A model generated the notes under the pieces. The model made no database searches, was not told the origin of the DNA, and saw nothing but the letters and a program-made list of their open reading frames with translations. The position numbers and the translations under genes were made by a program. 64,000 nt of DNA, taken from positions 1,704 through 65,703 of the forward strand of contig CAYXHP010000022.1 of the NCBI GenBank assembly GCA_964465015.1. Direction: 5' to 3'. This document shows positions 6,696 to 56,166 of the stretch, in pieces. Position 1 is the stretch's first letter; each line of letters opens with the position of its first letter. This DNA comes from an uncultured Gemmatimonadota bacterium. Lineage in GTDB: Bacteria > Gemmatimonadota > Gemmatimonadetes > Palauibacterales > Palauibacteraceae.

Positions 6696-7505
6696 GTGGC
6701 CGCGGCCACGGTGAGCGCCTTCCTCCTCCTGTTCGGCCCCGGACTCGTGGAGCTGGTGGGTGACTGGCTCCGCGATACCGATTACCTGCACGGCTTCCTC
6801 CTCCTGGGCGTCGCGCTCTATCTGGCCTGGAGGGACCGCCGCCGCGCCGCGCCCTCCCCATCGCGCCGGGCGGGCGGTCTCGTCATCGGTGCCGCCGTGC
6901 TCCTCTTCCTCGTGGCCAGCGTCGCCTCGGAGCACTTCACGATGCGCCTGGCCGCGCTGGCGGCCGGTGCGGGCCTCGTCCTCTTCTACGTGGGCCCGGA
7001 GCAGCTTCGGGCGTGGTGGCTCCCCTTCGCACTCATGGTGTTCGCCATCCCGCTCCCGGAGGTCGTGGTGGGGACGGTGACGCTTCCTCTGCAGCTGTTC
7101 GCGTCGCGAAGCGCCGCGGCGCTGCTCCGGTTCCGGCATGTTCCGTCGACGGTCTCGGGCAACATCATCAATTTGCCGGGCCAGCGGCTGTTCGTGGCCC
7201 AGGCGTGCAGCGGCCTTCGGTCCCTGTCGGCCCTCTTCGGGCTCACGCTCCTCATGGGCGGCACCTGGCTCGACCGACCGGCCGACCGCATCGTGCTCCT
7301 GGTCGCCGCGCTCCCGGTGGCGTTGCTCGCGAACGTCTTCCGCATCTTCGTGACCGGCTTCCTGGCGTACTTCGTGGGCACGGGCGCGGTCACGGGCGAG
7401 GCACACGAGTCGGCGGGGCTCCTGGTGTTCGCGGCCGCCCTCGGCGTGCTCGGCCTGCTCGCCTGGATGTTGAAGAGCCGCGAGCGCTCGCGGGTGCGAG
7501 CGTGA
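6696..7505 (+). CDS. xrtA: Exosortase (XrtA/EpsH family transpeptidase).
   Basis: Polytopic membrane protein with the exosortase catalytic blocks: Cys in AQACSGLRS and the Asn-x-x-Arg in LANVFRIF. RBS GGAGGGAGG upstream of GTG 6696. It is followed by EpsI. Confidence 0.85.
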   Translation: MAAATVSAFLLLFGPGLVELVGDWLRDTDYLHGFLLLGVALYLAWRDRRRAAPSPSRRAGGLVIGAAVLLFLVASVASEHFTMRLAALAAGAGLVLFYVGPEQLRAWWLPFALMVFAIPLPEVVVGTVTLPLQLFASRSAAALLRFRHVPSTVSGNIINLPGQRLFVAQACSGLRSLSALFGLTLLMGGTWLDRPADRIVLLVAALPVALLANVFRIFVTGFLAYFVGTGAVTGEAHESAGLLVFAAALGVLGLLAWMLKSRERSRVRA

Positions 7506-39851: not shown

Positions 39852-40835
39852 ATGAGGGAAGAGCCCGCGATGCCCGCTCCAGATTCAGCCGGTCCGACCA
39901 TCTCCGTGTCGGTCATCGTGCCGATCACGGAACGTCCAGCGGAGCTCTGCGCACTCTACCGGGAGTACTCCGCGGTACTGGCCGCCTCGGACCGCGCCTT
40001 CGAGTTCGTGTTCGTGGTCGAGCCGTGGAACCGCGAGCTCACAGCCGGCCTGACGGCACTCCGGAGGGAGGGCCAGCCGATCGAGGTGATCGAGGCCGGG
40101 CAGACCGTCGGAGAGGCGTCTCTCATGAGACTGGGCGCCGAGCACGCCCGAGGGGACATCCTGGTGACGCTTCCCGCCTACTATCGCATCGAGGCCTCGG
40201 CGCTCCCCGGGCTCATCCGCGAGGTCGAGGCGGGCGCGGATCTGGTGGTCGCCCGCCGTTGGCCCCGGCGGGACTCGTGGGTCAACCGGATGCAGACCGC
40301 GGCGTTCCACGCCCTCCTGAGGGGCGTGGGCCGTGGCCGGTTCGACGACGTGGCGTGTGGCGTACGCGCGATGCGACGAGAGGTCGTGGACACCGTACCC
40401 CTGTATGGCGACTTTTACCGCTTCTTTCCGCTCCTCGTCCAGCAGGAGGGATTTCAGGTGCGTCAGGTGGACGCGCCCCAGCACCCGCTCGACCAGCGGA
40501 CGCGGGTGTACGGCCCCGGGGTGTACGTCCGCCGGCTCATCGACCTGCTCGGCGTCTACTTCCTGCTCCGGTTCAGTCACAAGCCGCTGCGCTTCTTCGG
40601 ACTCGTGGGGAGTGTCCTCTCCGGTGTGGGGGGCGGGATCCTCCTGGTCGTGCTGGCGCAGCGACTCGGTGGACAGGGGATCGCCGATCGGCCACTCCTC
40701 CTCCTGGGCGTGCTGCTGTTCACGCTGGGCTTCCAGGCCATCGCGCTCGGGCTCGTGGGTGAGATCATCGTCCACCTGAGCGCGTCCAGCGCCCGGATGT
40801 ACCGACTCCGAGACGAGGAAGACGGCCCGTCGTGA
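39852..40835 (+). CDS. GT2-like protein paralogous to the preceding gene; DxD motifs look degenerate, so possibly non-catalytic.
   Basis: ISVSVIVPITERP ... C-terminal TMs (LVGSVLSGVGGGILLVVL). Collinear with 38857..39813, but the DDGS/DGD positions are replaced. Start candidates are GTG 39810 (GTGA overlap), ATG 39852 and ATG 39870. Confidence 0.6.
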   Translation: MREEPAMPAPDSAGPTISVSVIVPITERPAELCALYREYSAVLAASDRAFEFVFVVEPWNRELTAGLTALRREGQPIEVIEAGQTVGEASLMRLGAEHARGDILVTLPAYYRIEASALPGLIREVEAGADLVVARRWPRRDSWVNRMQTAAFHALLRGVGRGRFDDVACGVRAMRREVVDTVPLYGDFYRFFPLLVQQEGFQVRQVDAPQHPLDQRTRVYGPGVYVRRLIDLLGVYFLLRFSHKPLRFFGLVGSVLSGVGGGILLVVLAQRLGGQGIADRPLLLLGVLLFTLGFQAIALGLVGEIIVHLSASSARMYRLRDEEDGPS

Positions 40836-41746
40836 ACGACGGTGCTTCCCGTTCCGCGCACCGGCGCCACATCTTCACCGTGGACCTGGAGGAGTACTTC
40901 CAGGTGCACGTCTTCGAGGACATCATCCAGCGGGCCGAGTGGGGCGTGTTTCCGAGCCGGGTCGAGCGGGCCACGGACAAGCTTCTCGAGCTCCTGGACG
41001 ATCACGGCGGGCGGGCCACCTTCTTCGTCCTCGGCTGGATCGCCGAGCGTCATCCCAACCTCATCCGGCGCATCGATGCGTTGGGACACGAGATCGCCTC
41101 ACACGGTTGGTGGCATCGGCGGGTGACGGACCTGGGACCCGAGTTGTTTCGAGAGGACGCGGGCGACGCCAAGGCGATCCTGGAGGACATCGTCGGGAAG
41201 CCCGTGGTCGGGTTTCGCGCCCCCAGCTTCTCCCTCGTTCCGGGAACCGAGTGGGTGTTCGATGCTCTCGCCGAGCTGGGCTACCAGTACGACTCCAGCA
41301 TCTTCCCCATCCGGCGCTCGGGTTACGGTTACCCCGGCGCGCCCACCCAGCCGCACATCGTGAGCGGGTCGTCGGGCTCCCTGCTCGAGCTGCCGCTGAC
41401 GACCCTGGGCTGGTCCGTCGCCCGCCTTCCGGCGGCCGGCGGGGCCTACTTCCGGCACCTGCCGTACGGGTGGACCCGCAAGGCGCTCGAGCAGATGCAG
41501 GCGCAGGGCGTCTCCGCCGTGTTCTACATCCACCCGTGGGAGCTGGACCCGCACCAGCCCCGTATCCCGGTCTCGCCCATGGCGCGCATGCGCCACTACC
41601 GCGGCATCGAGCACACGCCCCGGCGCCTGGCGCGGCTCCTGTCCGAGTTCTCCTTCACCTCGGTCGCCGACCACTACGGGCTCCAGGGCACCACCGCCAC
41701 GTCCGCCAACCTGGAGGACCTCCCGAAGGTCGACCGTGTCACCTGA
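40832..41746 (+). CDS. Polysaccharide deacetylase family protein of the XrtA/PEP-CTERM-associated type.
   Basis: GTG 40832 overlaps the upstream stop (GTGA). HIFTVDLEEYFQ ... RATFFVLGWIAERHP ... GHEIASHGWWH, a NodB-like fold with a DUF3473-like C-terminus. Confidence 0.75.
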   Translation: MNDGASRSAHRRHIFTVDLEEYFQVHVFEDIIQRAEWGVFPSRVERATDKLLELLDDHGGRATFFVLGWIAERHPNLIRRIDALGHEIASHGWWHRRVTDLGPELFREDAGDAKAILEDIVGKPVVGFRAPSFSLVPGTEWVFDALAELGYQYDSSIFPIRRSGYGYPGAPTQPHIVSGSSGSLLELPLTTLGWSVARLPAAGGAYFRHLPYGWTRKALEQMQAQGVSAVFYIHPWELDPHQPRIPVSPMARMRHYRGIEHTPRRLARLLSEFSFTSVADHYGLQGTTATSANLEDLPKVDRVT

Positions 41747-42809
41747 GGTCCGCGAGTACTCCGGATCCGCGGGGGAGTGGGATGCTTTCGTGCGAGAGAG
41801 CGCCGCATGGACGCACTTCCACCAGTACGGTTGGAAGCGCATCATCGAGCACGTGTTCGGGCACGAGTGCCTCTACCTGTGCGTGCGAGGCGATGAAGGT
41901 GAGGGAGCTCGAGGGGCGGGCCAGGAAGCGCCGGGAGGGGGAGGCGGGCTCCGTGGCATCCTACCGCTTGTCCGGGTGCGGAGCCCCGTGTTCGGGCACT
42001 ACCTGGTGTCGATGCCGTTCCTGAACTACGGCGGTCCGCTGGGGGACGCTGAGGCCGTACGGGCCCTGGCGGAGGCCGCCCTCGCGCGGTCTCGGGCCGA
42101 CGGCGCCGACCTTCTGGAGCTCCGGAGCCGCACGGAGCTTCCGGTGGATCTCCCGGTCTCACATCGCAAGGTCACGGTGCTGCTGGACCTGCCGGAGGAC
42201 GACGCGGAGATCCTGTGGGACGCGCTCAAGTCGAAGGTGCGGAGCCAGGTGCGCCGCCCTCGCAAGGAGGGCGTCACCATACGGTTCGGCGCCGACCAGG
42301 TGGAGCCCTTCCACCAGGTGTTCGCCGAGCACATGCGGGACCTGGGAACGCCGGCGCAGGGTCTCGAGCTCTTCCGCGCCATCGCCCGGGAGTTCCCGGA
42401 CTCGGCCGTGTTCGGATGCGCTTACCTGGACGGCCGGCCGGTGGCGTGCGGCTGCGGCTTCGAGTGGAACGGCGAGTTCGAGATCACGTGGGCCTCGGCG
42501 CTCCGCGAGTACAGCAGGATCGCCCCGAACATGCTCCTGTACTGGTCGTTCATGGAGCGCGCCATCGAGCGCGGGCTCGGGCTGTTCAACTTCGGGCGCT
42601 GCACGCCGGGGAGCGGTACGCACCGCTTCAAGCAGCAGTGGGGCACCCGGGACGAGACGCTGTGGTGGTACCAGGATGGACGCGGGGAGACCGAAGCGAC
42701 CCCCTCGCCGGACGAGGGGCTGTACGCGTGGGGCGTCAAGGTCTGGCAGCGGCTCCCGGTTCCGGTCGCCACGGCGCTCGGGCCGCGGATCGTGAAGTAC
42801 ATTCCCTAG
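41736..42809 (+). CDS. FemAB-like/GNAT acyltransferase (exosortase-system-associated type).
   Basis: GTG 41736 overlaps the upstream gene by 11 nt. C-terminal LLYWSFMERAIERGLGLFNFGRCTPGSGTHRFKQQWG is characteristic of the FemAB/CelD-like acetyltransferase family. Confidence 0.7.
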   Translation: MSPEVREYSGSAGEWDAFVRESAAWTHFHQYGWKRIIEHVFGHECLYLCVRGDEGEGARGAGQEAPGGGGGLRGILPLVRVRSPVFGHYLVSMPFLNYGGPLGDAEAVRALAEAALARSRADGADLLELRSRTELPVDLPVSHRKVTVLLDLPEDDAEILWDALKSKVRSQVRRPRKEGVTIRFGADQVEPFHQVFAEHMRDLGTPAQGLELFRAIAREFPDSAVFGCAYLDGRPVACGCGFEWNGEFEITWASALREYSRIAPNMLLYWSFMERAIERGLGLFNFGRCTPGSGTHRFKQQWGTRDETLWWYQDGRGETEATPSPDEGLYAWGVKVWQRLPVPVATALGPRIVKYIP

Positions 42810-50514: not shown

Positions 50515-50612
50515 CACCGAACAAGTGAGGCAAACCCGGCGAAAGCCGGGGACGCAAAGTCACGGGGCTGTAGCGGCGAGGTCGCCGCCACGTCGGCCGG
50601 GCTGCCGGTGGG
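50515..50612 (+). promoter_or_regulatory. c-di-GMP-I (GEMM) riboswitch-like element, copy 1, in the leader of a Big_2 lipoprotein gene.
   Basis: AGGCAAACC-CGGC-GAAA-GCCG-GGGACGCAAAGUCACGGGGCU ... matches the GEMM core (GGCAAACC, a GNRA-capped hairpin, GGGACGCAAAGYC). Closing P1 is CCACCG ... CGGUGG. A second hairpin GCGGCGAGGUCGCCGC. Located in a 390-bp non-coding, lower-GC gap. Confidence 0.65.
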
Positions 50613-50809
50613 TCGTCGAGGTCCGGAGCCAAAGCTCCGGCTTCAGGCCGGGATGAGACGGCGAGCGACCGGTGGACGAGATGAAGGCGGGAGCCCCGGT
50701 GGGGCACCGCGCGATCGTTCACCGAGAACTCGGAGACTCACCCGTGAGCACCTACTCGCTTGCCCCCGTCGACGGCGGGGCGTCCACGAGCTCCCGGATC
50801 CACCCCGGT

Positions 50810-51445
50810 GTGGCGCGAGCCACTGCCGGCATCCTCCTCGCCGGAGTCGCGCTCGTTCTCGGAGCCTGTGCCAACAATCCCGCAGCCCCCGCGGACACGT
50901 CCACGAGCGGTGCGGCCACCGTCGTGTCCGTCCAGCTCAGCCCCTCCCCACTGAGCCTCATGGCGTCCCAATCGACCGGCTTGAGCGCGATGGCCAAGGA
51001 CGCGTATGGCAATCCCGTCACGGTGCAGCTGACGTGGAGCAGCTCGGACTCCAGTGTAGCCACCGTGGACAATGAGGGCACCGTGACCGGCATCACGGCC
51101 GGCGACGTCACCATCCAGGCCGCGGTCGGCGGGGTGACCGGGTCGGCCGATGTGACGGTCCAAGCCGACACCACGGGCGGCTCCTCCTCCCAGGCTCCGG
51201 TCGCAAGTGTCGCCGTGTCACCGTCGGCGGACACGCTCGCGGCGGGCGATTCCGTCAACCTCACCGCCACCCCCACAGACGCCTCGGGCAACACCGTCTA
51301 TGGCGTGCCCATCGGCTGGTCCAGCTCGGACACGGCCGTCGCGACGGTCAGCGGAGGTGAGGTCCATGCCCTGAAGGCGGGAAGCGTCACGATCTCGGCC
51401 GTGGCCGACAGCGTAACCGGGACGGCGACGATTCTCGTCCACTAG
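50810..51445 (+). CDS. Secreted lipoprotein with two bacterial Ig-like (Big_2) domains.
   Basis: Lipoprotein signal VARATAGILLAGVALVLGAC (lipobox LGAC) followed by two Big_2 repeats (VQLSPSPLSL ... GTVTGITAGDVTIQA; VAVSPSADTL ... ALKAGSVTISAV). The start is uncertain: ATG 50672 and GTG 50744 are in frame upstream. Confidence 0.65.
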   Translation: MARATAGILLAGVALVLGACANNPAAPADTSTSGAATVVSVQLSPSPLSLMASQSTGLSAMAKDAYGNPVTVQLTWSSSDSSVATVDNEGTVTGITAGDVTIQAAVGGVTGSADVTVQADTTGGSSSQAPVASVAVSPSADTLAAGDSVNLTATPTDASGNTVYGVPIGWSSSDTAVATVSGGEVHALKAGSVTISAVADSVTGTATILVH

Positions 51446-51461
51446 CATTCCATCCGGGGAC

Positions 51462-51488
51462 GGCGGAGCGCGTCTTCCGCGCGCTCCG
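51462..51488 (+). terminator. Rho-independent-type terminator hairpin after the first Big_2 gene.
   Basis: Perfect 11-bp inverted repeat GGCGGAGCGCG-tcttc-CGCGCTCCGCC, 17 nt after the stop codon. There is no U-tract, as is common in high-GC genomes. Confidence 0.5.
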
Positions 51489-51725
51489 CCGCCTCCATTC
51501 CTGCCAACGCCACCCCTCTCCACTTCCCCCGGTCCTCTCCTCCGTCTCCTTCTCTCGACGCCCCCGGGAGCGGTTGAAACCCACCCCTGAAAGATCTTCC
51601 CACCCGGACACTGATTGCAGCATCTGACAGGTCAGAGGCGATTCTAAGTCCTTGACCAACAACACTGTTAGTCAAGGTATGCATCTCGCCTGTGGGTTCG
51701 CCGGACGCGCGAGCATTCGCGTCTG

Positions 51726-51815
51726 TCCGCCGAAAAAGGCAAACCCGGGCGAAAGCCGGGGACGCAAAGCCACGGGGCTACAGCGGTCCAACCGCCATGC
51801 CAGCCGGGCTGCCGA
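51726..51815 (+). promoter_or_regulatory. c-di-GMP-I (GEMM) riboswitch-like element, copy 2, in the leader of the second Big_2 lipoprotein gene.
   Basis: AAAAAGGCAAACCCGGGCGAAAGCCGGGGACGCAAAGCCACGGGGCU ... is nearly identical to the copy-1 core. The downstream blocks GGUCCGGAGCCA and CUUCAGGCCCGG are also shared with copy 1. Confidence 0.65.
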
Positions 51816-52147
51816 GCGGTCGCTGTGGTCCGGAGCCACCGCGCATGTGCTTCAGGCCCGGTTGAGCCGCCGCGTGATCGGATGAAGAGAGTGTGGGCTC
51901 GCTATTGAGCCCGCGAGTCCTATCCCCCGACTCCGGAGCCTGACTCGTGTTCGACGCCCAAGGCGCATCGTGCGCCCACTCCCGAGCTGCATTCGACGCT
52001 GATTCGAATCATTCCCCAGGTCTTGACCGATCCTTCAGGAGCACCCTGCCCGAATCGTGCGAACGTCGCACGGCGGGACCTTCGCCACACGTCGGTGTAC
52101 GCTCTCGGATCCGTAGATGGTTATCGCTACGGCATCTGGGAGGATCG

Positions 52148-54016
52148 ATGGTCGCCTGCTACGTGGCTCTGACGCTCACGGCGTGCGCCAACAATCCAGC
52201 GGCGCCGGGCAGTACCTCATCGCCCGGTCCACTGGTCGAGGTGGCGTCGGTCGATCTCCACCCTGCCTCGATGAGTCTCGAGAGCGGCCAGTCGACCCTT
52301 CTGCAGGCCAGCGTGAAGGACAAGAACGGCAACAACGTCACTGTCAAAGTGGCGTGGTCCACGAGTGACGCGAGCGTCGCCACCGTGGATTCCACCGGCA
52401 CCGTTCGAGCCACCGGCTCGGGCAAGGCCACGATCAAGGCGAGCTCGCACGGGAAAGGTTCTCACACCCGTGTCAAGGTCAGCAGTCCGCCAGTGAGCGG
52501 GAGTCCGACGGACACGTCGTCGACCTCCTCGAGCGGATCGGCTGGAACGGTGGCCACCATCACGCTGACTCCGAGGCTGGACACCCTGGCTGTCTCCGAG
52601 ACGGTCAACCTGACCATGGTCCCGCGGGACGCCAGCGGTCACATCTTGACCGGCATCTCGGTGAGCTGGTCGAGCAGCAACACGTCGGTGGCGACCGTGG
52701 ACGGCGGCCTGGTCACCGCCAAGGGGGCGGGGTCGGCCACGATCACCGCGTATTCGGGCGGGGTCTCGGGCACGTCCTCGATCGTGGTGACTGGTGACGC
52801 CTCGTCGTCGGGTTCCCAGTCCACGGCGTCGGTAGCCATGGTCCAGGTCACGCCGGGCTCGGTCACTCTGGATCCAGGCCAGACCATCGATCTCACGGCC
52901 ACGCCCCTGGACGCATCCGGGAACGTCGTATACGGGGTCGGCGTCACCTGGTCGACCACCAACGCCTCGGTCGCGACGGTGAGCGGCGGCAAGGTGACGG
53001 CCGTGAACGCCGGTTCGGCCAAGATCGTGGCTTTGGCTGGCGGGATGTCCGGTTCGGCGAGCGTGACCGTGAACGATCCCCCGGTCTCGGCGGCACCGAC
53101 GCCCTCCGGAGACGCTTTGCTGAATGGGTGCACGGTCAGCGAGTCGAACAACACACCATCTTGCTCAACGCCTTCGGGCTGGACGCTCATCGCGAAGGAG
53201 GGCTTCGGCGGCGGCAGTGTCCATCAAGGCGAGATCGACACGGGCCAGTACGGGCCCGCCATCGACTGCGGCTTCAGCCACACCGGAAGCTGCTCGCTCC
53301 GGCAGGACATTTCTGGCGACGGCGGCTCCTACCGAAACTGGCACATCAAGAAGGGCACGATCGGATCGCGACACGAGATCTACGTCTCCTACTGGGAATA
53401 CCTGACGACGGGTGCCACCGAGCAGGTGAACTTCTTCATGGTTCTCGCCGACAACCAGGGTAGCCATACGGCCAACTCGCCCTACGAGTACGTCCTGCAG
53501 GATCGCTGGGGCGATGTGTCGACGAGTGCCAACTCGACCACTTGCAAGAACGGCGTGGGTCCGTACAACAACTACAAGTGCCAGAGCGGCCACCTGGTCG
53601 TCGAATCGGTGTGCGCCCCCTGCACCAACAACATCGCCCGGTCCTACTACGGCAACTGGCGTGACATGGCCGTCGGCAAGTGGGTTCACTTCGAGTGGCA
53701 CTACAAGGCCAACACTCAGAACGGTGCCGGCGGGAACGCGGACGGAGAGATCCAGCTCTTCGTAAACGGCGTCTCCGAGCTGCACAAGACGGGCGTCGTC
53801 ATCAACGGCCCCAACGACATGACCGGCATGTACGTACAGGTGGGCGGTTACTACATGGCCCGCTGGTGGACGAACTCCGCCGGCAACACCTGCTCGGCCG
53901 TGGATGCCGCGGGTGCGGTCTATCACTTCGGGCAGTTCACGCAGTTCAACCCGCCCTGCCCGCAGCCGTCGAGCTTCAAGCGTTACATGGACGACATCAT
54001 CGTCCTGGCGAGGTGA
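52148..54016 (+). CDS. Secreted lipoprotein with three Big_2 domains and a ~300-aa Cys-rich C-terminal domain of unknown function (possible carbohydrate-active or binding jelly-roll domain).
   Basis: RBS GGGAGGA then ATG 52148. Signal MVACYVALTLTAC. Three Big_2 repeats. The C-terminal region has about 14 Cys (GCTVSESNNTPSCS, CKNGVGPYNNYKCQSGHLVVESVCAPC, PPCPQP). The upstream 67 codons of ORF 51947.. have low GC3. Confidence 0.75.
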   Translation: MVACYVALTLTACANNPAAPGSTSSPGPLVEVASVDLHPASMSLESGQSTLLQASVKDKNGNNVTVKVAWSTSDASVATVDSTGTVRATGSGKATIKASSHGKGSHTRVKVSSPPVSGSPTDTSSTSSSGSAGTVATITLTPRLDTLAVSETVNLTMVPRDASGHILTGISVSWSSSNTSVATVDGGLVTAKGAGSATITAYSGGVSGTSSIVVTGDASSSGSQSTASVAMVQVTPGSVTLDPGQTIDLTATPLDASGNVVYGVGVTWSTTNASVATVSGGKVTAVNAGSAKIVALAGGMSGSASVTVNDPPVSAAPTPSGDALLNGCTVSESNNTPSCSTPSGWTLIAKEGFGGGSVHQGEIDTGQYGPAIDCGFSHTGSCSLRQDISGDGGSYRNWHIKKGTIGSRHEIYVSYWEYLTTGATEQVNFFMVLADNQGSHTANSPYEYVLQDRWGDVSTSANSTTCKNGVGPYNNYKCQSGHLVVESVCAPCTNNIARSYYGNWRDMAVGKWVHFEWHYKANTQNGAGGNADGEIQLFVNGVSELHKTGVVINGPNDMTGMYVQVGGYYMARWWTNSAGNTCSAVDAAGAVYHFGQFTQFNPPCPQPSSFKRYMDDIIVLAR

Positions 54017-54939
54017 GCCGAGTCATCGCACGAGGCGGAGCAACAGGGACGTGCTCAAGCGCAGATGGGTCGAATGCCCGTTCCCCTTCGGGCCTCTTCG
54101 GCACCTCGGGATGAGAGTCGGTGAGGGAGGCATGCGGCGCGGAAGGAATCGGGCACCCGGCCGCACGGTTGCGGTGCCCGCCTTCCGCGCCTCCCCGCCA
54201 CGGAGGCGCGGGGGGGGCTGTGAGCTTCCCCCGATCCCTGGGCCCCGACGGGATGGTTCGGAAGAGTATGGCGCGATGCCGAGCTGTCCGGGCAAGGGAT
54301 GGGCGGGCGTTCTCGCGGTTGATGGCATGGCCGGAGAGCTCGAGCTCAGGATCGTAACTACCCTCACGGCCGCGGCCGACTCTCCGTCCGGAGCCGTTCT
54401 TCGGACCGTGCGGCTCGTGTCCCATGCAGTCCACGAACCGTTTCCAGTCGGAGCCGCGGGCTCTGCCCGATCGGGTCGACCGGCAGGCCACCCTCGTGCG
54501 CTGCCCACCTGCCATGAAGCCTTCCAACCACACTCGACCGGGGAACGGGACCGACGCGATGCTTGCGAGGCCGAATCTGTCCTCTCCCAGCCGGTCCTGT
54601 AGCGACTCCAACATCATGAAGTCACGGAACGCCCAGGCGTAGGCCGGGGGTGCACGGCTGCGGATCCCCGCTGGCACGGTGCAGCCGGGCTCGGCCGGCC
54701 ACCGCTCGTCGCTGCGATGAGAAGAGCGCCGCGCTTGCGCTTCACCCCCCGTCGAGGCGCTCTCTGATCCACCGACGAACGGCGGAGTTCCGCATTCTCG
54801 ACGAGTCATCGGCCGCCGCGTACCTTCTGTCGAGGTCTACGGCCCTCCCGATCTCACGAGATTCGCGACCGTGGCTTGCGATGGGGGCCGATCTGGTGTC
54901 TGAGACATTCGCTCGACCGGTTTCACACCGCGGGGTTCT

Positions 54940-56166
54940 GTGAGTCGTCCTGAAATTCTCTTTCTGTCCCACTGCTTGCCCTATCCTCCAGCCAGTGGGG
55001 TCACCAATCGTACGTATCACATCCTCGAGCAACTGGGTCGGGAATTCGAGGTGTCCGTGGTGGCCTTCTCACGGAGAGAGCACCAGAAGTCATCCGAGGC
55101 CATACGCAAGGCCGCTCAAGGACTTCGGGGCATCGTCCACGAGGTCTACCCGCCGGCGCCGCTGCCCTCGGAGCGGTCGGTACTCCGGCGAGCGTTCGCT
55201 CATGTCCGCAGCGTGGCGTCGGGCAAGCCGTACACGGTGTTCGAGTATCGAAGTGCGACCTTCAGCCGCGGCCTGGCGGAGGCCATGGCGTCGCGCCGCC
55301 CGGATCTGGTCCACCTCGACAGCCTCGATCTCGCCGGCTTCATCGGACTCCTGCCCGATGCTCCGATCGCGTGCACTCACCACAGTGTGGAATCCGAGCT
55401 CCTTCGCTTGCGGGCCGAACACATTCGTCCGCGGCTCCTCGGCTCATACCTGAAGTTCCAGGCCGAGCTCATTGAGGATTCCGAACGAGAATTCTGTCCG
55501 CTCATGGCGACCAACATCATGATGTCGGATACGGATGCGCGTAGGCTCGAGTCGCTGGTCCCGGGTTCACGGACCGATGTGGTGCCGAATGGCGTGGATA
55601 CGACCGCGCTGAGCCCTCCCGGCGAGCCCCGGGACACGGACCGGATCGTCTTTCTCGGTCCGACCTACGTGTATCCCAACTTCGACGCCCTGTCCTTCTT
55701 CCTGAAACAGGTCTGGCCCCTCGTCCGATCGGCGGATAGAAAGCTGAGGTTCGAGATCGTCGGCAAGGTATCCACGAGGCACAGGGAGAGGTTCGAGGCG
55801 GAGAACGTCACGTGCCTGGGACACGTCGATGACTTGAAGGCGACCGTCGGGCGCGCCCTCTGTTCGGTCGTTCCAATTCGAATTGGGGGGGGGACCCGCC
55901 TCAAGATACTCGACTCGTGGGCGCTCGGAACGCCGGTGGTCTCCACATCGATCGGCTGTGAAGGTCTCGAAACCAGGGATGGCCGGAACATCTTGATCCG
56001 AGACGATCCCCGGGAGTTCGCGGCTGCGATCCTGGAGTTACGAAGGAACGCCGACCTGCGTGACACGCTGGGCGACGCCGGCCGACAGACGGCCGAGTCG
56101 GCCTATGCCTGGAGCGTGGTCGGAGACAGGATTCGGGGCATCTACCGGAGGCTCATCGACGCCTGA
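54940..56166 (+). CDS. Family 4 glycosyltransferase of the PEP-CTERM/exosortase-associated sugar transferase type.
   Basis: GTG 54940 (MSRPEILFLSHCLPYPPASGVTNR). The C-terminal GT4 fold was recognised by eye. Notably lower GC and GC3 (about 60%) than the rest of the locus. Confidence 0.75.
   Translation: MSRPEILFLSHCLPYPPASGVTNRTYHILEQLGREFEVSVVAFSRREHQKSSEAIRKAAQGLRGIVHEVYPPAPLPSERSVLRRAFAHVRSVASGKPYTVFEYRSATFSRGLAEAMASRRPDLVHLDSLDLAGFIGLLPDAPIACTHHSVESELLRLRAEHIRPRLLGSYLKFQAELIEDSEREFCPLMATNIMMSDTDARRLESLVPGSRTDVVPNGVDTTALSPPGEPRDTDRIVFLGPTYVYPNFDALSFFLKQVWPLVRSADRKLRFEIVGKVSTRHRERFEAENVTCLGHVDDLKATVGRALCSVVPIRIGGGTRLKILDSWALGTPVVSTSIGCEGLETRDGRNILIRDDPREFAAAILELRRNADLRDTLGDAGRQTAESAYAWSVVGDRIRGIYRRLIDA

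Follow-up and report, generated by a model that had tools for sequence, protein, structure and literature searches.

A conserved jelly-roll family of exopolysaccharide cassettes and a divergent member encoded behind a c-di-GMP-I aptamer in an uncultured Gemmatimonadota bacterium

The window analysed here is a stretch of 64,000 nucleotides from an uncultured Gemmatimonadota bacterium (assembly GCA_964465015.1, contig CAYXHP010000022.1, positions 1,704 to 65,703 of the forward strand), and our subject is the gene at 52148..54016 on its + strand, for which the list of open reading frames (ORFs) and their translations gives a protein of 622 residues (stop codon included in the coordinates). An identical protein, P0001, is present in a public collection. 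The robust outcome of our analysis is that the product is an exported, probably lipid-anchored protein with a jelly-roll module directed at exopolysaccharide (EPS), that this module belongs to a conserved accessory family, and that the gene stands behind a c-di-GMP-I aptamer, the riboswitch class that binds cyclic di-GMP (c-di-GMP). Beyond this, we favour the tentative reading, to which we give a probability of roughly 0.4, that the module cleaves or trims a glycan and that its expression is tied to c-di-GMP. A preliminary description, made from the nucleotide sequence without database searches, had proposed a riboswitch-controlled lipoprotein with three Big_2 repeats and a Cys-rich C-terminal domain, possibly an EPS-modifying lyase or hydrolase.

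The C-terminal domain comprises 299 residues (324-622; 53117..54013 on the + strand). Searches with residues 324-622 yielded no Pfam match at E <= 10, none in NCBIfam and nothing meaningful with phmmer against the PDB, in line with the preliminary view of a domain of about 300 residues and of unknown function. A word-indexed homologue search with the domain returned nothing, and the profile version of that search retrieved 7 proteins only. Exhaustive phmmer, by comparison, gave 138 cluster representatives at E <= 1e-3 and 65 at E <= 1e-10, and homology to the relative P0002 was clear over the full length (E 1e-49). When the family profile was compared with PDB sequences, CBM40 alone was found (E = 0.007). 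The members carry no precomputed Pfam domain across the jelly-roll region. PF26918, which is annotated on P0001, was considered as a name for the domain and rejected, since it is unlisted for the remaining family members. The domain usually spans about 280 residues and is C-terminal in 81 of the 93 full-coverage matches; it is mostly preceded by a signal or lipoprotein peptide and often by TIG, PKD, He_PIG or Big_2 repeats; occasional partners are dockerin, CBM11 and a type IX secretion system (T9SS) tail.

Conservation was read from an alignment of 93 sequences sharing 25-40% identity, numbered such that domain position 1 corresponds to residue 324. S91, E193 and D292 are invariant, H55, Y89, W189 and Q191 are conserved in at least 90% of the sequences, and the range of 80-98% is occupied by H55, G57, Y89, W189, Q191, N199, C259, C281, R289 and D293. 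Position 31 is Glu or Asp in 95% of the sequences and position 105 in 91%. The resulting family signature reads [ED]31, H55, Y89-x-S91, N103-x-[ED]105, W189-x-Q191-x-E193, C259...C281 and R289-Y-x-D292-D293, of which the window protein retains H55, Y89, S91, W189, E193, C259, C281, R289, Y290, D292 and D293. In full-length numbering, the conserved exposed residues are H378, Y412, S414, W512, H514 (Gln in the family), E516, R612, D615 and D616. Positions 31, 103 and 105 (53207-53209, 53423-53425 and 53429-53431 in the window) are jointly lost in the window protein, in the relative P0004 and in the closest metagenomic relative (L012:6001-6906). This joint loss suggests that the three positions form one structural unit, probably a metal site, that was given up by a subclade. 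The metagenome contig L011, at 99% identity, bears out the His at position 191. Its segment L011:3-557 (JGI Ga0307419_10048544) encodes domain residues 115-299 at 99% identity and is followed by the same family 4 glycosyltransferase (GT4) gene, which means that independent sampling has reached this organism or one very close to it.

The domain contains 10 Cys (full-length positions 328, 339, 374, 382, 466, 478, 489, 492, 582 and 604), 9 Trp and 17 Tyr. It is thus as rich in Trp and Tyr as first described, and the earlier figure of about 14 Cys turns out to be the count for the whole 689-residue ORF that starts at GTG 51947. The residue range 380-689 once assigned to the domain was based on the same longer ORF and conflicts with the start at 52148 given in that same description. 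The proposed paired arrangement of the cysteines held up well. Among the 93 homologues, cysteines co-occur at positions 5/16 (p = 5e-19), 51/59 (p = 4e-14) and 259/281 (p = 4e-9; Fisher tests), and 83% of the domains have an even number of Cys. This pairing exceeds chance and supports five putative disulfides in the window domain, and the co-varying pairs together with the even counts argue for an extracytoplasmic, oxidising location. The domain opens with a conserved L-L-[ST]-G-C (53117-53131) that resembles a lipobox and is actually the first half of the Cys5-Cys16 pair; in relatives where a signal peptide precedes it, this motif could mislead lipoprotein predictors.

We then modelled the domain of the window protein with AlphaFold2 and the family alignment, as well as a typical member, P0017, and compared both models with the PDB by Foldseek. 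The window domain was predicted as an all-beta jelly-roll, the fold that had been surmised from its sequence, with a predicted local distance difference test score (pLDDT) of 83.7 and a predicted TM-score (pTM) of 0.87, and the Cys-rich insert 144-156 was its only poorly predicted part. P0017, modelled independently, also gave a jelly-roll (pLDDT 89.0). The best Foldseek match of the window domain was the polysaccharide lyase (PL) family 36 alginate lyase Aly36B (5.5e-8), closely followed by the PL20 structure 2ZZJ (2.1e-7, TMt 0.59) and then by PL14, X122 and Cip1; lower ranks were taken by botulinum-toxin binding domains, glycoside hydrolase (GH) family 16, the PL28 ulvan lyase and CBM40. 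P0017 reproduced this order (2ZZJ at 7.4e-9, TMt 0.63), and its list also contained legume lectins and Emp47p. According to these models, the family belongs to the ConA-like jelly-roll group, nearest to the cluster formed by PL20, PL36, PL14 and Cip1, and TM values of 0.5-0.63 at about 12% identity indicate that the fold is shared while the family is not. The lyase- or hydrolase-like character proposed at the outset is therefore borne out to the extent that the best solved-structure matches are PL36, PL20 and PL14; it did not extend to PF14099, which had been named as a family to check and which gave no match in the window protein even at E <= 10, and the fold also occurs in lectins, Cip1 and X122. 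Among 64 relatives, PF14099 matched weakly in 10 (best 1.1e-4) and PF21294 in 2. Structure prediction did not point with confidence to any fold outside the carbohydrate field, and at the level of the fold a similarity to carbohydrate-active enzymes was seen.

The exposure of the conserved residues was read from strand periodicity, combining the sequence with the predicted secondary structure. In strand 87-96, E87, Y89, S91, W93 and Y95 alternate with I88, V90, Y92 and L96, and in strand 189-197, W189, Q191 and E193 alternate with hydrophobic positions. Because of this alternation in both strands, the conserved polar and aromatic residues should point away from the core and face the solvent. 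An outward polar and aromatic patch is what is expected for a sugar-binding cleft or an active site on a concave sheet (PMC8618178), in a fold that is common to hydrolases, lyases and lectins (PMC10916295, PMC3764139).

Judging from its gene content, the surrounding region is an EPS cluster of about 60 kb of the exosortase (XrtA/PEP-CTERM) type, with the jelly-roll gene in its middle, and the link to EPS suggested earlier was thus recovered here and, repeatedly, in the relatives. The hallmarks of such clusters, a PrsR-like sigma-54 response regulator, an exosortase, a deacetylase and a FemAB-like protein, are located at 200-2317, 6696-7502 and 40832-42806. Three of them exceed their NCBIfam cut-offs, namely the exosortase (TIGR02602, 152.9 vs 105.55), the FemAB-like protein (TIGR03019, 274.3 vs 260.35) and the XrtA-system deacetylase (TIGR03006, 335.5 vs 276.2). 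The rest of the cluster encodes two AsnB-type amidotransferases, many GT4 and GT2 glycosyltransferases, a Wzy-like protein and further deacetylases. Next downstream of the jelly-roll gene lies an stp1-like GT4 gene (54940..56166, + strand; TIGR03087 at 177 bits, below the cut-off). Orthologues of this glycosyltransferase were found near the homologue in eight related loci (L002, L005, L020, L021, L026, L027, L035 and L037; E 1e-51 to 1e-72).

When related loci of at least 7 kb were considered, EPS genes were present in 11 of 17, and many related loci contain orthologues of the window's stp1-like GT4, Wzy-like, deacetylase and GFO/epimerase genes. Three further loci, those with P0017, share the order GT4 - Wzy_C - deacetylase - GT4 - jelly-roll. 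Acidobacteriota, Fibrobacteria and a deltaproteobacterium are among the sources of these loci; L001, L012, L013, L024, L028 and L044 show no EPS genes. Taken together, the family appears to be a recurrent accessory of Wzy-type EPS cassettes that combine an stp1-like GT4, a Wzy-like protein and a deacetylase. In the three P0017 loci, the next gene called (L045:8165-9307, also in L046 and L047) lies about 650 nt downstream of the jelly-roll gene and has faint or weak matches to GH88, Pec_lyase, SQHop_cyclase_C and Ulvan_lyase_N; its product may be a second glycan-processing protein of the cassette.

A c-di-GMP-I (GEMM-I) aptamer is located upstream of the jelly-roll gene on the same strand (51728..51816, +; Rfam RF01051, 78.2 bits), and a second one (50519..50609, +; RF01051, 67.6 bits) lies ahead of a paralogous gene. 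Both exceed the RF01051 gathering score of 35 and match model positions 1-87 in full, and Rfam matches nothing else in the window. In the Rfam alignment, where the GGCAAA core can be recognised, both copies read GGCAAACCCG. The G in both aptamers is presumably equivalent to G20 of Vc2, a position occupied by A in the variants that sense cyclic GMP-AMP. The paralogous gene (50672..51445, +) encodes a lipoprotein with two Big_2 repeats by Pfam and no jelly-roll domain; this protein (257 residues) shares 47% identity with the N-terminal half of our target, although its translation probably begins at 50744 or 50810. With an aptamer and a Big_2 lipoprotein in both units and 47% identity between the products, the locus reads as a tandem duplication of a riboswitch and Big_2-lipoprotein unit, with the extra domain in the second copy only.

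The leader of the target gene (51817..52147, +) is 331 nt long and can be aligned with that of the paralogue for about 140 nt beyond the aptamers. It contains a GGAG-N8-GTG element (51935-51949), a C-rich and G-poor segment (about 51897-52057) and a hairpin (52090-52150; -28.5 kcal/mol, z = -3.55) that sequesters the Shine-Dalgarno (SD) sequence GGGAGGA together with ATG 52148. This hairpin may be a translational control element or plain mRNA structure. A search of the 331-nt leader for a terminator with a U-tract found none. The intergenic segment between the paralogue and the aptamer of the second copy (51446-51727) consists of 39% C and 23% G and has CT-rich runs, a bias comparable to that at 51897-52057 of the leader, and this rut-like composition could point to Rho-dependent termination. 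Riboswitch control of the target gene, as first proposed, is thus a putative one, supported by the position and the strand of the aptamer.

The N-terminal part of the protein is made up of three Big_2 Ig-like repeats (52232..53080, +; about 52232-52480, 52550-52795 and 52832-53080), the number that had been read from the sequence alone. PF02368 matches in three stretches with 101.7 bits (gathering score 22.8), and the limits of the repeats were estimated by alignment to the paralogue. Weaker Ig-type cross-matches in Pfam (Big_1, HL_N-beta) fall within the repeats. HL_N-beta, the hyaluronate lyase N-terminal domain, was accordingly rejected as lyase evidence, since its match at residues 177-203 is an Ig-like cross-match inside a Big_2 repeat. 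The repeats are preceded by a short signal peptide with a lipobox (52148..52186, +; read from the sequence), in which L-T-A-C, ending in Cys13, conforms to [LVI][ASTVI][GAS]C and closes a hydrophobic segment, in agreement with the lipoprotein assignment made at the outset. In sum, the product is probably an exported, lipid-anchored protein that displays the jelly-roll at the tip of a Big_2 stalk.

Two translation starts come into question. ATG 52148 has GGGAGGA just 5' of it (52138-52144) and gives the signal peptide MVACYVALTLTAC, with 12 residues ahead of the lipobox Cys and zero basic residues. The longest form of the ORF begins at GTG 51947 and has 689 residues with the same end at 54016. 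The GGAG-N8-GTG element of the leader is in frame with this ORF and, in the leader alignment, has a counterpart at 50732-50746 in the leader of the paralogue. The positively charged n-region RSRIRRWLSLRH appears only with the GTG start. It is encoded in a stretch (51947-52147) where the G+C content at third codon positions (GC3) is 0.57 in every frame, compared to 0.86 in the gene body, so that this stretch is not coding-like; the conserved element might also reflect some translation within the leader. Clear lipoprotein signals are present in the paralogue and in the relatives P0002, P0003 and P0004. The mature protein is identical from either start, provided that the lipobox Cys13 is used. 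Between the stop codon of the target and the next gene there is a gap of 923 nt (54017-54939) with a GC3 of 0.65-0.72 and no coding-like frame, and the sole ORF scanned in it (53997-54809, - strand) had no Pfam match; the gap may be the remnant of a gene or an extended regulatory segment.

We favour cleavage of a glycan on account of the polar residues that are invariant over deep divergence, the lyases among the nearest folds, the weak PF14099 matches in relatives and the habit of EPS operons to encode a glycanase. According to this proposal, the concave sheet would bind the cluster's own polysaccharide outside the cytoplasm, contacting it through the exposed patch of Y89/S91/W93 and W189/Q or H191/E193 as well as through H55 and R289, and the chain would then be cleaved or trimmed, as by the glycanases of other EPS operons (AlgL, PslG, ExoK, PelA). 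The nearest folds would favour beta-elimination, hydrolysis being also possible. The leader aptamer would link expression of the target to c-di-GMP, the second aptamer doing the same for the Big_2 paralogue, and our guess is that the switch is turned on by c-di-GMP, alongside matrix production. What the analysis itself shows are the aptamers, the domain architecture, the predicted fold, the family, its synteny and its pattern of conservation; export and lipidation, like the substrate, the catalytic activity and the sense in which the switch acts, are inferred. Several results weigh against the proposal. Sequence-level PL or GH membership of the window protein was found in none of Pfam, NCBIfam and PDB, and the fold similarity is moderate (TM 0.5-0.63), with lectins, CBM40 and toxin binding domains matching too. 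In the alignment of 93 sequences, Lys stays below 80% conservation at every position, and the Lys-based chemistry of PL36 thus appears not to be kept in the family. The close folds Cip1 and X122 have lyase-like clefts and no demonstrable activity (PMC3764139, PMC10916295). The window protein itself has G31, Q103, N105 and H191 where the family has E, N, E and Q, and with these departures it could be an inactive or re-purposed member. A UDP-sugar 6-dehydrogenase was not identified among the ORFs scanned in the window, which leaves uronic acids in the polymer unproven. With respect to regulation, minimum-free-energy folds and the alignment of the two leaders are ambiguous on the on/off logic, and the start codon is uncertain, given that the conserved SD-GTG favours 51947 and the GC3 of 0.57 speaks against it. 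The Rfam scan of 44 related loci, which left the three P0017 loci (L045-L047) outside, revealed no riboswitch; a conserved association between riboswitch and jelly-roll domain was accordingly rejected (0/44).

Nearly as likely as cleavage, especially for this substituted member, is that the protein acts as a non-catalytic matrix tether, a lipid-anchored Big_2 stalk whose lectin-like jelly-roll holds EPS at the cell surface and which is made at high c-di-GMP, comparable to the EPS-binding matrix proteins CdrA and Bap1/RbmC. The ConA-like fold is common to lectins and carbohydrate-binding modules, CBM40 is the sole PDB match of the sequence profile (E = 0.007), Foldseek also lists legume lectins and Emp47p, and activity is undetectable in the close folds Cip1 and X122 (PMC3764139, PMC10916295). 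Moreover, 4 of about 13 signature positions are substituted in the window protein, the existence of a riboswitch-preceded paralogue composed of the stalk only suggests that the stalk itself is important, and, as related clusters share orthologous biosynthetic genes, a conserved site could reflect a common ligand. However, S91 and E193 are invariant and His, Tyr and Gln are kept in different phyla at 25-40% identity, a pattern that one would sooner expect of a catalytic site than of a lectin site; enzymes also take the highest ranks among the structural neighbours, and relatives show weak PF14099 and PL14 profile matches. The more specific claim that the family is a new PL or GH family in CAZy, a dedicated extracytoplasmic enzyme for Wzy/stp1-type exosortase-associated EPS with a variant in this lineage that lacks the 31/103/105 unit, carries His191 and is controlled by a c-di-GMP riboswitch, strikes us as rather unlikely. 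It is improbable that the protein is secreted to attack foreign polysaccharides as a lyase or hydrolase, be it nutrients or the matrices of competitors, and has nothing to do with the cluster's polymer. Dockerin, CBM11, PKD and T9SS sorting domains in some relatives are typical of degradative enzymes, and the six related loci listed above show no EPS genes; against this, GT4, Wzy and deacetylase orthologues adjoin the gene in many distant loci, the gene itself is mid-way in a cluster of about 60 kb, and c-di-GMP control would better suit matrix functions. We give very little credence to a non-glycan substrate, even though the conserved Q191, E193, S91 and H55 would allow for a peptidase of the G1 eqolisin type, built on a jelly-roll with a Gln/Glu dyad, or for a hydrolase of the Ser-His-acid kind. 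G1 peptidases do combine a ConA-like sandwich with a Gln/Glu dyad. Yet the first 50 Foldseek matches of each model include no peptidase, His replaces Q191 in the window protein, and the context is wholly one of glycan biosynthesis.

Many bacteria of soil and water form flocs and biofilms by means of exosortase/PEP-CTERM-associated EPS, whose chemistry and extracytoplasmic maturation are, to our knowledge, poorly known. A jelly-roll protein that is conserved, exported and encoded alongside genes for a Wzy-like protein, a deacetylase and an stp1-like glycosyltransferase in different phyla is a concrete candidate to fill this gap, either by processing the polymer or by anchoring it. Should it prove catalytic, a new family of lyases or hydrolases would be established and these polymers could be dissected with it, and if the new-enzyme reading were true, the trimming or release of a polymer would be set by c-di-GMP directly at the RNA level. 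The tandem riboswitch and lipoprotein units represent an added case of RNA-level c-di-GMP control of surface proteins in such a locus. The components, GEMM-I, Big_2, the lipobox and the ConA-like jelly-roll, are all of known kinds, and the function that we ascribe to their combination is a presumed one. New are the family as now recognised, the signature conserved in it and its syntenic EPS cassettes, as well as the divergence of the window member and its placement behind a c-di-GMP riboswitch; that genes for secreted proteins in exosortase EPS clusters can be preceded by riboswitches has been noted before, for strain GP59 (PMC12530212).

Among structurally characterised proteins, the PL20 endo-beta-1,4-glucuronan lyase from T. 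reesei (2ZZJ), considered here together with PF14099 (Polysacc_lyase, PL13/PL20-type), shares the beta-jelly-roll and was the best or second-best Foldseek match. At about 12% identity to 2ZZJ, our domain is 50-60 residues longer and contains Cys-rich inserts. In Cip1 and 2ZZJ, the ligands of a structural Ca2+ come from a Glu/Asp near the N-terminus, from a loop and from an Asp that is conserved on the C-terminal strand (PMC3764139). Within the family, [ED]31 and the invariant D292 would fit this site, whereas in the window protein the N-terminal acidic residue is replaced by G31. Aly36B of PL36 (6KCW) and the PL14 lyases vAL-1 (3A0N) and AkAly30 (5GMT), all at the top Foldseek ranks, resemble the family in having a jelly-roll with a concave cleft sheet. 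In Aly36B, the catalytic residue is Lys (K143), and in AkAly30 a disulfide lies close to the active-site loop (PMC8618178). The PL36 and PL14 enzymes differ in being degradative and not encoded in biosynthesis clusters, and PF21294 is touched by only 2 of the 64 relatives. Cip1 (3ZYP) and the X122 proteins TtX122A/B (8Q28/8Q2A) fall into the same fold cluster and have a conserved patch on the inner face and a Ca2+ site, features that the jelly-roll family probably shares. The conserved residues are Arg118, His100 and His213 in X122, whereas they are Y-x-S and W-x-Q-x-E in the jelly-roll family, and the context of Cip1 and X122 is one of cellulose or redox proteins, as compared to EPS biosynthesis cassettes. 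The GH16 motif E-x-D-x(1,2)-E is absent from the domain sequence, and GH16 structures rank below the lyases in Foldseek.

With regard to function, EPS operons often encode their own glycanase, as exemplified by AlgL, PslG, PelA, PgaB, BcsZ and ExoK. These enzymes are likewise exported, glycan-directed and encoded amid biosynthetic genes, but their folds are unrelated to our domain, except for ExoK, a GH16 jelly-roll. In PelA and PgaB, a deacetylase is paired with a hydrolase, a pairing that is echoed by the frequent proximity of the jelly-roll gene to a polysaccharide deacetylase gene in the synteny analysis. The regulatory arrangement has its closest counterpart in Methylophaga nitratireducenticrescens GP59, where c-di-GMP riboswitches precede genes for secreted proteins in an exosortase EPS cluster (PMC12530212). 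The two systems are alike in that several clustered riboswitches each stand ahead of a gene for an exported protein in an EPS/exosortase locus (PMC12530212). Whereas the GP59 products are PEP-CTERM proteins, those of the window are Big_2 lipoproteins without a PEP-CTERM tail, one of which carries the jelly-roll.

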